From: Escherichia coli | Lineage (GTDB): Bacteria > Pseudomonadota > Gammaproteobacteria > Enterobacterales > Enterobacteriaceae | Assembly: GCF_009931435.1 (NCBI RefSeq) | Contig: NZ_CP043414.1 | Reading direction: 5' to 3' (one strand) | DNA: 64,000 bases | Shown here: positions 22,675 to 25,600 of the stretch, piece by piece | Position numbering within the stretch: the stretch's first letter is position 1 | How the letters are laid out: each line of letters opens with the position of its first letter | Made by a program: the position numbers

Positions 22675-25600
22675 TTATCGATATACTTCCGGAGCAGTTT
22701 ACAGTGTGGTTTATCGCCAGTCAGAGTTACAGACAACGCTACTTTTGGCATACCTGGTATGTACATTGTCATGATGGGCTCATCGACGACGGACAGGTTC
22801 AGTAAGAGCCCTATCGGCGGGTCTTCCTTTTTGGCCGGGATGGTGTAAATATTGGGATTGTCTGTGGACTCGAAGCTCAGGAACATATTTGTCAGCTGAT
22901 CACTTTTGGTCAAACATTGATCGTGAAGGAGGGAACGACAAACCATGTGGATGAAAGTTTCTTCGGATGCGTTGTGTAATATGGTTGTATAATCTGATGA
23001 GGATAAATCATCCCAGTTTTCTATCTTGCTGGTCTTGCTGGTCTTGCTGGTCTTGCTGGTCTTGCTGGTCTTGCTGGTCTTGCTGGCTGCGATATCGTTT
23101 AATGAATTGTTTAATAAATCGGTTAATACATAGCCGATATGAAGACGGTTTGCTGTCTGGCTGGATTCATCGGGTGCCCAATATTCATTTTCATTGGGTT
23201 TAACATATACACCGGATGCACCGGATAAAGAAGTAGGCTGGAGCATGATACCTCACAAAAATGTGTTGATGAAAAGCCGGATTCTGTCCATATTCCCGTG
23301 AACCGGCTATCAAAATTCGCGCATTTTGCCAGGTATTCATGTGGTTAAAATTTATCTGGTGCGTTTCCGGTGGTTTTGCAGTTCACCAGCTACAATCGCT
23401 AGCAACGGCACATTTATACTCAACATAAGTTAAATCATATTGACTGTTAACTTACTTCATGAACCAAGATGCATCGTCAATGGCGGCTTAAAATGGCGTC
23501 CTGTCTCATAATGATTCATACGACTGCTAGCCGATGCAGGGTCAAAGCCAACAAGGAGACCCAGAGAGCGCTGTGATAATCCCGCCCTGCATCTCGCTTC
23601 CTTAAGTCGCTCTGGTATCGGATTTTTTTCAGACACTGATTCATCTTCATTTGCCTCGAATGCTTAGAACGAAGAATGGAATGAATCGTATCATCATGTG
23701 ACCCCGTAAATTTCTCGTTCAAGTCAGTTGCTTTTTTCTTTTGAATTCAGATGAACACCTGAGAATGTTTTACCTGCATCTGTGGATAATAGTTTACTTT
23801 TAGTCAGACGTTTAACGGAGCTACAACCATGCAACCTGTTCATAGTGTAAATGACCAGTATCGCGGTATTTCTACACCGCCGACTGTGAAGGATAAAATT
23901 TACAATGATATTATTTCGCTAAAAGAAGACTGGGTTTCCCTGGTGGATAGAATTTCCCGGGATGATTTTGATGTGAATAATACAAACTGCGACAATAGCG
24001 ACGGGGAATTATTTGGCGAACCTCATTGTATGGCACCTGGTACGGATTGGAAAAAAGTAATAAAAAATTTACAGAGATTGAGTATCAGCGCCTGCCTTAA
24101 GCTGAATATACCAGCCAGTGACTGTTTCGACAAAACCGACCTGTCTGGTATCCCTGTGGAGAAACTCGAATTCGAATATCGTGAGGCAGGTGCCCCAGGT
24201 GGGGTAACTTCTGAATGACAAAGGCATAAAAGAAATCATTTAAAATGAGCGATATTTGATAGTTTTTCTCCGGTTTTAAAATAGTATCAATAGTATCAGG
24301 TGAATCTTTATCCCGACATTATCCGGGATAATATTCAGATTTCTGTTAATGTCAGTAATGGGTTCGATAAATTAAAAGGTGATTATTATGATGTCCGTTA
24401 ATGGTGATGTCCACACTATAATACTCAGATCTTCTACTACAAATACTACAAAAGACCTGTACTATGATGGAAACATGATGCCACTGGCGGGTGTCAAAGC
24501 CATACTTGATACAAGTACCGGAGGATTTTCCAGTTGGGTCAAAAAGTTATTATATGCTATTGCTCATTTGTTAGGAAGCGAAAAAATTCCGAACAATGAG
24601 AATATGCGGGAAGGCATGGAATATCTTAAGTTGATTTTTAAAAGCGCCATTCAGGAAGAGAAGTACAGATATGTCATCCGGGATGAGAGTGGCGAGGTTT
24701 ATGTAGAAATAAACTTTGACCCGGAAGCGAAACAGTTGTTCATCAGTTGTGCCGGGGGGAAAGAATCAATATGTTGTACAGAAAAAGAGTTTACAAACGT
24801 TAAACAAAACCTCATAGAAAAATATTGTCCGAGAAATTACCAAACGTCCTATGATCTGGTTGCGAACAAGCTTTACAGGTATGACATTTTAGAAGAGCTG
24901 ATGGCTTGCGACAACAGGGGTGAGAGCATTTTGTTCAGGGCTATGCGGGACGGGGATACAGATTTGATTGAAAGCCTTCACCTGTCCGAACTTACCGGTA
25001 AAGGCGGACTCACCTCCAGTAAGATGCTAAAATTACTGGAGGCGTCAAGCGAAGGGGGTACCCCGGGTTTGTATATGGCCATGAAGAACGGACGCTATGA
25101 CATGCTGGATACAATACTGGGCTTGCTCGCCAAACTGCCCGATAATTATAACATTAACAAAAATGATGTACTGAGGTTACTGAAAGCAAAAAACTCTGAT
25201 CCGAGATCTAATTCGATTGAAGGGTTGGAAATTGCTATGACGGAAGGACATGATAAAATACTGATAACGATGTTGGAAATGCTTCCCGACGTGGTCAAGA
25301 GGTTTGGAATTACCAATGATGAGATGCGGGATTTAATCAATCCACGTAGGGGTGATGATCGTGCTTTGAGCAAAGCCATGCTTAATGGGAAAGAAAACAT
25401 AGTGACCGCTATGCAACGGTTACTCCCCGACCATGCCGAGAAATTACAACTCAGCAAAGAGGATGTCTTTAATATACTGTCTTCATTCAACGATAAAACT
25501 TCCCAAAACCCCTCGGGTTTATTTAAGGTCATGTCACATGGGAAGGTAAATATGCTGAAGTTCATGCTGGATAATCTCTGCGCGCTACCGGAGGAGGTAT

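Follow-up and report, generated by a model that had tools for sequence, protein, structure and literature searches.

Among the closest described systems to the locus studied here are the elements of the GInt/Tn6571 family, which carry at their 5' end a ginABCD operon encoding three tyrosine-recombinase-like proteins and a small protein, GinD, without any domain, and in which the cargo begins at the ginD stop codon and the element is bordered by imperfect direct repeats of 10-11 nt (Bardaji et al., 2017, PMC5385486). In E. coli, GInts are reported to act as defence carriers in hotspots (Hochhauser et al., 2023, PMC10121019). The interval between hipA and ydeT is hotspot #20 in the supplement of the latter study, where a BLASTP E < 1e-5 to GinA/B/C was the criterion for GInt homology. 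The DNA analyzed, a stretch of 64,000 nt of the E. coli chromosome referred to as the window, has the order lsrK, an autotransporter gene, hipBA, an island, and the fimA/ydeQRS fimbrial genes.

In strain R32_14_1F, the island is the same except that IS100 is missing and that an extra 12.8-kb element is inserted exactly at window position 17971/72. In gene order, this element comprises two tyrosine recombinases, a 787-aa protein, a 147-aa protein, an HTH module and an ABC-three-component defence system, with imperfect 10-nt repeats, TATGTTAAAT and TAAGTTAAAT, at its two borders. Similar to the GInt/Tn6571 family, it has four co-oriented genes at one end, a defence cargo, a site-specific location and 10-nt imperfect repeats. 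Its ginD-like gene stops at position 11264 of the R32_14_1F locus (L006) and the cargo module starts by 11292, placing the cargo at the ginD stop between direct flanking repeats of the length found in GInts. Within L006 5553-11264, two proteins passed the Pfam Phage_integrase profile (30.3 and 28.6 bits; cutoff 27.1), while the 787-aa third protein had only a faint Pfam integrase match (E = 0.34) and no match when compared by sequence with solved structures, and the 147-aa fourth protein had no domain. In contrast to the described family, the third protein of R32_14_1F is not demonstrably a recombinase, and the window holds remnants only: no ginABC-like genes were detected there by tblastn, and only a ginD-like gene survives. 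By accession look-up, the gin-like proteins of R32_14_1F and of strain 74-2 were absent from the GInt list in the supplements of PMC10214605. The R32_14_1F element is referred to as GInt-like, an assignment made by gene organization. Its presence in R32_14_1F and absence from the window at one precise site would fit excision and re-integration, and its circular form would join CTCAACATAAGTTAAAT to CATGTTGATTG.

The HTH module of the 12.8-kb element consists of a homologue of an MbcA-like gene, an intact 110-aa HTH gene and a 186-aa gene. The same genes occur on plasmid pEC_CBJ3C, the intact reference, where the 110-aa product is annotated as 'helix-turn-helix transcriptional regulator', where its gene overlaps by 17 bp the next one downstream, a 64-aa gene annotated as 'MbcA/ParS/Xre antitoxin family protein', and where the HTH gene is divergent from a 186-aa hypothetical gene. 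In its intact form, the gene heads a two-gene operon (HTH and 64-aa genes), divergent from the 186-aa gene and directly after the recombinase genes of the GInt-like element. About 200 complete E. coli genomes and 54 plasmids carry it intact. The 110-aa protein covered Pfam HTH_3 completely (positions 1-55 of 55, 36.4 bits) and matched 92/101 positions of the PADLOC 'Control_protein' profile PDLC03667 (E = 5.5e-26), with a weak match to the RstR repressor family (38 bits, below cutoff). The upstream region of the intact locus contains two CTTAG..CTAAG palindromes, CTTAGATTGTCTAAG and ACTTAGCAATCCTAAGT. Autoregulating C-proteins are expected to have palindromes upstream of their own gene. Because of the PADLOC match and the palindromes in its own upstream region, the intact protein is likely a C-protein-like repressor that regulates its own gene and is encoded where the element cargo begins. 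It differs from the C proteins of restriction-modification systems, with which it shares these two features, in that no restriction-modification genes are adjacent and the palindromes are predicted operators; the fragment in the window, with 48/110 residues (44% of the protein) and half a palindrome, does not qualify as C-protein-like under PDLC03667.

A likeness to the type II RES-Xre systems (MbcTA/ParST) lies in the 64-aa gene, which bears the Xre/MbcA/ParS C-terminal toxin-binding domain. However, the HTH and the toxin-binding domain are here on two separate polypeptides, unlike in RES-Xre antitoxins, and searches with Pfam and NCBIfam profiles revealed no RES toxin domain in the neighboring ORFs, including the 186-aa and the 145/147-aa proteins. 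With split polypeptides and no adjacent RES toxin, it would be unjustified to call the HTH/64-aa pair an MbcA/ParS toxin-antitoxin system.

Two truncated copies of the HTH gene, A and B, lie in the island of the window (Table 1). They share a direct repeat (18914-18980 and 23493-23559) in which 61/67 bases are identical (91%; E = 4e-22 by BLAST within the window), one identical run of 33 bp included. Copy B used as a query at ≤3 mismatches found only itself in the window, and 0 matches were expected by chance, confirming the repeat from which the original prediction set out. The true homologous overlap is about 61-63 bp (18912-18974 and 23491-23553), bases 18975-18980 of copy A being part of another gene remnant. 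Alignment with the intact pEC_CBJ3C reference showed that A and B are complementary pieces of the HTH gene.

Table 1. Features of the island adjoining hipA; positions refer to the window.
Feature	Position	Strand	Description
attL-type junction	17962-17971	+	TATGTTAAAT, core at 17965-17971; the putative first remnant starts here
ginD-like gene	17980-18417	+	in the putative first remnant; 145 aa, 86% identical to the 147-aa R32_14_1F protein
64-aa partner gene	18559-18753	-	downstream of the copy A HTH fragment, full length; MbcA/ParS/Xre C-terminal toxin-binding-like domain
Copy A HTH fragment	18740-18974	-	3' part of another copy of the HTH gene, covering codons ~27-110
186-aa gene remnant	18973-19116	+	3' part, aa 139-186 of 186; 75% identity by tblastn
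IpaH-like LRR gene	19692-23246	-	cargo of the putative first remnant, TSK-repeat N-terminus; split by IS100 at 20688-22641
attP-like tandem junction	23419-23464	+	46 bp; right end CTCAACATAAGTTAAAT, then left end CATATTGACTGTTAACTTACTTCATGAAC
59-aa ORF tail	23457-23492	-	11 codons and stop, unrelated; junction DNA between left end and HTH fragment
Copy B proper	23493-23636	-	GTG start and codons 1-48 of 110; XRE/C-protein-like HTH pseudogene
Native leader	23637-23668	-	32 bp; terminates with CTTAGA (23663-23668), which forms the left half of the first operator-like palindrome
ORF129	23829-24218	+	129 aa; after copy B, 'effector-like'
Ankyrin-repeat protein	24379-26343	+	654 aa; after ORF129, 'effector-like'
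Same pseudogene, same context in RefSeq			e.g., IUB69_RS00280, KIN45_RS11615, V4O65_RS13785

The minus-strand translation of copy B contains ...VGFDPASASSRMNHYETGRH..., within a 59-aa ORF (23457-23636) whose GTG start is at 23634-23636. In tblastn, the intact 110-aa protein aligned with copy B over aa 1-48 at 97.9% identity, and at the DNA level copy B proper was 96-96.6% identical to the intact genes of pEC_CBJ3C and of the R32_14_1F element; with the leader included, identity to the pEC_CBJ3C reference was 96-97%. Homology to the intact genes ends at 23493, and the total homologous stretch on the minus strand, 23493-23668, corresponds to codons 1-48 plus the 32-bp leader. Copy B is, as proposed, an HTH regulator fragment out of its context, homologous to intact HTH genes and with unrelated flanks; the sequence around the repeat is, however, not all unrelated, since the homology to HTH genes extends 115 bp past the repeat, to 23668, and includes the start codon. 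Alignment with intact homologous regulators upheld the HTH assignment while revealing that both copies are truncated. Compared with a full-length regulator of about 110 aa with its own start and promoter, copy B has 48 native and 11 unrelated codons. Its ORF reached 22.4 bits with Pfam HTH_31 (profile positions 5-39 only; cutoff 27) and 15.3 bits with HTH_3 (cutoff 23), and neither copy encodes the complete five-helix domain, scoring above the Pfam gathering threshold, that marks the XRE family.

The status of copy B as a pseudogene was already known, since it is flagged by the standard annotation pipeline: PGAP/RefSeq lists it as a partial HTH pseudogene, 'helix-turn-helix domain-containing protein; incomplete; missing C-terminus'. 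The RefSeq/PGAP pseudogene has the identical context at ≥99% identity in 17 complete E. coli genomes, but its annotation makes no link to the 3' fragment at copy A or to the adjoining element junction. At the level of the locus, the 321-bp context of copy B was ≥99% conserved in 17/5426 complete genomes. About 214 further E. coli genomes matched exactly 23493-23668, within HTH genes. Used alone as a query, the HTH fragment hit plasmid genes as well, in 54 plasmids that came chiefly from Klebsiella and E. coli; a far higher figure of 1851 plasmids was discarded, being mostly due to an IS100 end included in the query. The 59-aa ORF was open in four of the five strains examined (the window and three others), and the GTG start codon of the fragment was lost in one strain (L002).

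The original prediction treated copy A as the HTH gene itself, which the alignment contradicts: the copy A fragment lacks codons 1-26 and the promoter, has no start codon according to alignment, BLAST and tblastn, and has no CDS in PGAP/RefSeq. It should not be read as an intact regulator. Its ORF matched only positions 27-52 of Pfam HTH_3 (18.4 bits; cutoff 23). In the copy A locus (18562-18974), this 3' HTH part is found together with the 64-aa gene. The 64-aa gene scored 41.9 bits with Pfam PF09722 (cutoff 24.5) and matched positions 55-112 of 112 of NCBIfam Xre_ParS_antitoxin. At its broken end (18974/75), copy A passes directly into the final 48 codons of the 186-aa gene, indicating an internal 588-bp deletion of the module. 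The DNA of this 186-aa gene remnant was 82% identical to L006 12306-12627. The 186-aa gene, normally divergent from the HTH gene, is here fused to copy A.

When two site-specific elements insert in tandem, an attP-like junction would be left between them. A junction of this kind separates copy A from copy B, with the core GTTAAAT at 23429-23435. Compared with the R32_14_1F element, its right-end 17-mer was identical to the corresponding end at 17/17 positions, and its left-end segment agreed with the left end at 27/29 positions. Each of the two motifs was unique in the window, and 0 occurrences of the combined pattern were expected by chance. Strain 74-2, where two HTH modules likewise follow each other in tandem at the same site, shows the right-end motif at its segment boundaries. 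Copy B starts 28 bp past the left end of the junction. The complete right-end/core/left-end arrangement between the copies suggests that A and B belong to two separate, tandemly inserted and decayed elements. On the hipA side, the sequence that follows the core, from 17972 on, is similar to the left end of the 74-2 element, and the first ~13 codons of the ginD-like gene derive from element left-end DNA. No further GTTAAAT core or right-end motif was detected from 23465 to 28000, so that a right end for the second remnant was not found there, and no att-like sequence was present at the junction with the conserved chromosome at about 27117. The divergence between alleles was uninformative as a test of separate origins for A and B, as the 5' region of the HTH gene is conserved in all alleles (93-98% identity, compared with 83-92% in the MbcA-like part).

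Taken together, copy B is quite probably a non-functional relic left by tandem insertion and decay of GInt-like elements beside hipA. This is the best explanation of the observed homologies, breakpoints and junction motif and of the missing promoter and operator, from which we infer in what order the events took place and that copy B is not expressed. At least two elements would have inserted in tandem downstream of hipA in this lineage and then decayed by deletion. The first remnant (17972-23435) would consist of a short left end, the ginD-like gene, the MbcA-like gene, copy A, the tail of the 186-aa gene, the IpaH-like cargo and a right end. The second, from 23436, would have kept about 30-57 bp of left end, from which a deletion would jump into codon 48 of its own HTH gene, and another breakpoint, located 32 bp ahead of the start codon, would connect it with the ORF129/ankyrin cargo. 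In this reading, the 61-67-bp repeat is no more than the stretch of HTH gene that by chance survived in both remnants. That the two deletions have end points no more than 68 bp apart in this one small gene is taken to be a coincidence.

The relationship between the copies could also be explained by a single HTH gene split by a cassette carrying the IpaH-like gene, through a Campbell-type event or insertion-duplication via a short HTH segment present on the incoming DNA, with A and B as its two halves and 61-67 bp duplicated at the junctions. The order along the gene is as this would demand, with the 5' part in B, a cassette of ~2.5 kb (plus IS100) and the 3' part in A, and both parts have the same orientation, overlap by 61-67 bp and share the 33-bp identical run. 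However, copy A's broken end continues into the 3' end of its own module's 186-aa gene and not into cassette DNA, only 28 bp lie between the broken end of copy B and a left end of an element, a complete right-end/core/left-end junction stands between the copies, and no recombinase or circular donor is evident. We regard a split gene as very unlikely, and its Campbell-type form was rejected in view of the element-derived DNA at both broken ends together with the element junction between the copies.

A second alternative, put forward in the original prediction, is that the fragment donates a promoter and/or operator to the divergent ORF129 and ankyrin genes. The fragment does face away from these effector-like genes, its start codon lies 192 bp from the ORF129 start, and a divergent regulatory region containing two palindromes is indeed present at the intact gene. 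Both palindromes and all promoter-like sites on both strands fall, in the intact element, into the 97 bp that separate the HTH and 186-aa genes; the latter sites are located at L006 11827-11899, whereas homology of the window ends at L006 11826 (window 23668), a breakpoint that bisects the first palindrome. Only 32-34 bp of native upstream DNA are left. A sequence scan of 23493-23870 revealed no sigma-70-like site on either strand, and tblastn found no intact copy of the regulator in the window. Moreover, a 431-bp deletion (23732-24162) in L003 and L004 removes the ORF129 start and leaves the fragment unchanged. Since the promoter-like sites and palindromes lie beyond the breakpoint of copy B, donation of regulatory sequence to the effector-like genes is not supported, and from the DNA we consider it highly improbable that the fragment acts in this way; the fragment itself is probably not expressed. 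The MxiE box, for which we take the consensus upstream of type III effector genes to be GTATCGTTTTTTTANAG, had 0 ungapped matches in the whole window at ≤3 mismatches. One look-alike, GTATCGGATTTTTTTCAG at 23613-23630, was rejected, as it needs an indel and is coding sequence common to all intact HTH alleles.

That the 59-aa ORF encodes a functional mini-HTH protein kept by selection is barely credible, for although the frame is open in the window and three other strains and the first three helices of the HTH fold are retained, the putative recognition helix among them, the C-terminal 62 residues of the family and the promoter region are gone, its Pfam scores fall below every cutoff, the start codon is lost in one strain, the last 11 codons consist of junction DNA, and the ORF is annotated as a pseudogene by PGAP.

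Under the preferred reading of tandem insertion and decay, the effector-like genes on either side of the junction would have arrived as cargo. The IpaH-like gene, in which Pfam recognized LRR domains only, is intact in L003, L004 and L006, with 508-528 aa. It is unlikely, though possible, that the IpaH-like LRR gene and the ORF129/ankyrin genes are cargo of separate GInt-type elements whose junctions on either side of the first remnant are still substrates for recombinases acting in trans. If true, the effector-like cassettes could still be excised or moved by recombinases from a newly arrived element, as in R32_14_1F. In a similarly speculative vein, the left-end-anchored deletions in both remnants might have been made by the recombinases of the element itself and not by chance.

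Copy B itself is of little biological weight, as a known pseudogene without detectable regulatory sequence. Together with the 46-bp junction next to it, it may instead serve as a marker that the effector-like island beside hipA was built through tandem insertion of GInt-like elements and their decay. Such insertion and decay in a known hotspot would explain why fragments of regulator genes are found there out of context.

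Two decayed GInt-like elements meet at a 46-bp attP-like junction, within which near-perfect inverted 7-mers (TCAACAT and ATATTGA) are separated by a 10-bp spacer. The first of the two remnants is still decaying, as shown by strain 2020CK-00188, where a further deletion of 517 bp (L002 6073–6077 versus window 18242–18758) has taken out the MbcA-like gene together with a portion of the ginD-like gene, a small gene of this remnant, while the copy A remnant of the HTH gene is retained. The SIR2-family gene and the ISNCY-family transposase represent a separate insertion into the same hotspot; both are missing in several strains (L002, L004, and L009), in which the same island directly follows hipA.

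Coordinates of the features in the window, unless another locus is named
Feature	Position	Strand	Remarks
SIR2-family gene and ISNCY-family transposase	~12564–17938		Between hipA and the attL-type site
IpaH-like LRR gene, two pieces	19692–20687 and 22642–23246	-	Interrupted by IS100
IS100 (istA/istB)	20688–22641		1954 bp; inside the IpaH-like LRR gene
attP-like junction	23419–23464		46 bp; an element's right end, the GTTAAAT core, and an element's left end
Ankyrin-repeat protein	24379–26343	+	654 aa; without other recognisable domain
Perfect direct repeat	42878–44665 and 48366–50153		1788 bp; one truncated, one full Tn3-family transposase gene
Two-palindrome region	L006 11821–11875 (strain R32_14_1F); L001 ~3170–3225

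The IpaH-like LRR gene was uninterrupted in strains without IS100, encoding 508–528 aa, and the IS100-free site showed a 5-bp overlap, consistent with a 5-bp target duplication. The gene contains about twelve LRR units of 60 bp (19815–20553), and a (TSK)x6 run in the protein is encoded by a perfect tandem repeat of seven 9-bp units (23024–23086). A NEL ligase domain was not found in a Pfam search, which returned LRR domains only, whereas PGAP named one allele of the protein "NEL-type E3 ubiquitin ligase domain-containing."

The start of ORF129, a 129-aa ORF, lies in a 431-bp segment (23732–24162) that is present in the window and in strain 2020CK-00188, and missing in strains R32_14_1F and 24A16CRGN010; ORF129 is therefore either dispensable or itself a remnant. 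The ankyrin-repeat protein, possibly a candidate for a type III effector, was found in only about 16–17 of 5426 complete E. coli genomes, every time within the same island.

Between the two copies of the 1788-bp repeat lie tet(A), tetR, and a gene for an EamA-like transporter; this arrangement looks like a chromosomal Tn1721-type tetracycline-resistance transposon adjoining an ABC-transporter gene.

In L006 and L001, two palindromes of the form CTTAG-N3/5-CTAAG lie between the intact HTH gene and the divergent gene, whose 186-aa product matched no family in Pfam, NCBIfam, or PADLOC. As candidate operator boxes, these palindromes would serve a C-protein-like regulator that is conserved where the GInt cargo starts.
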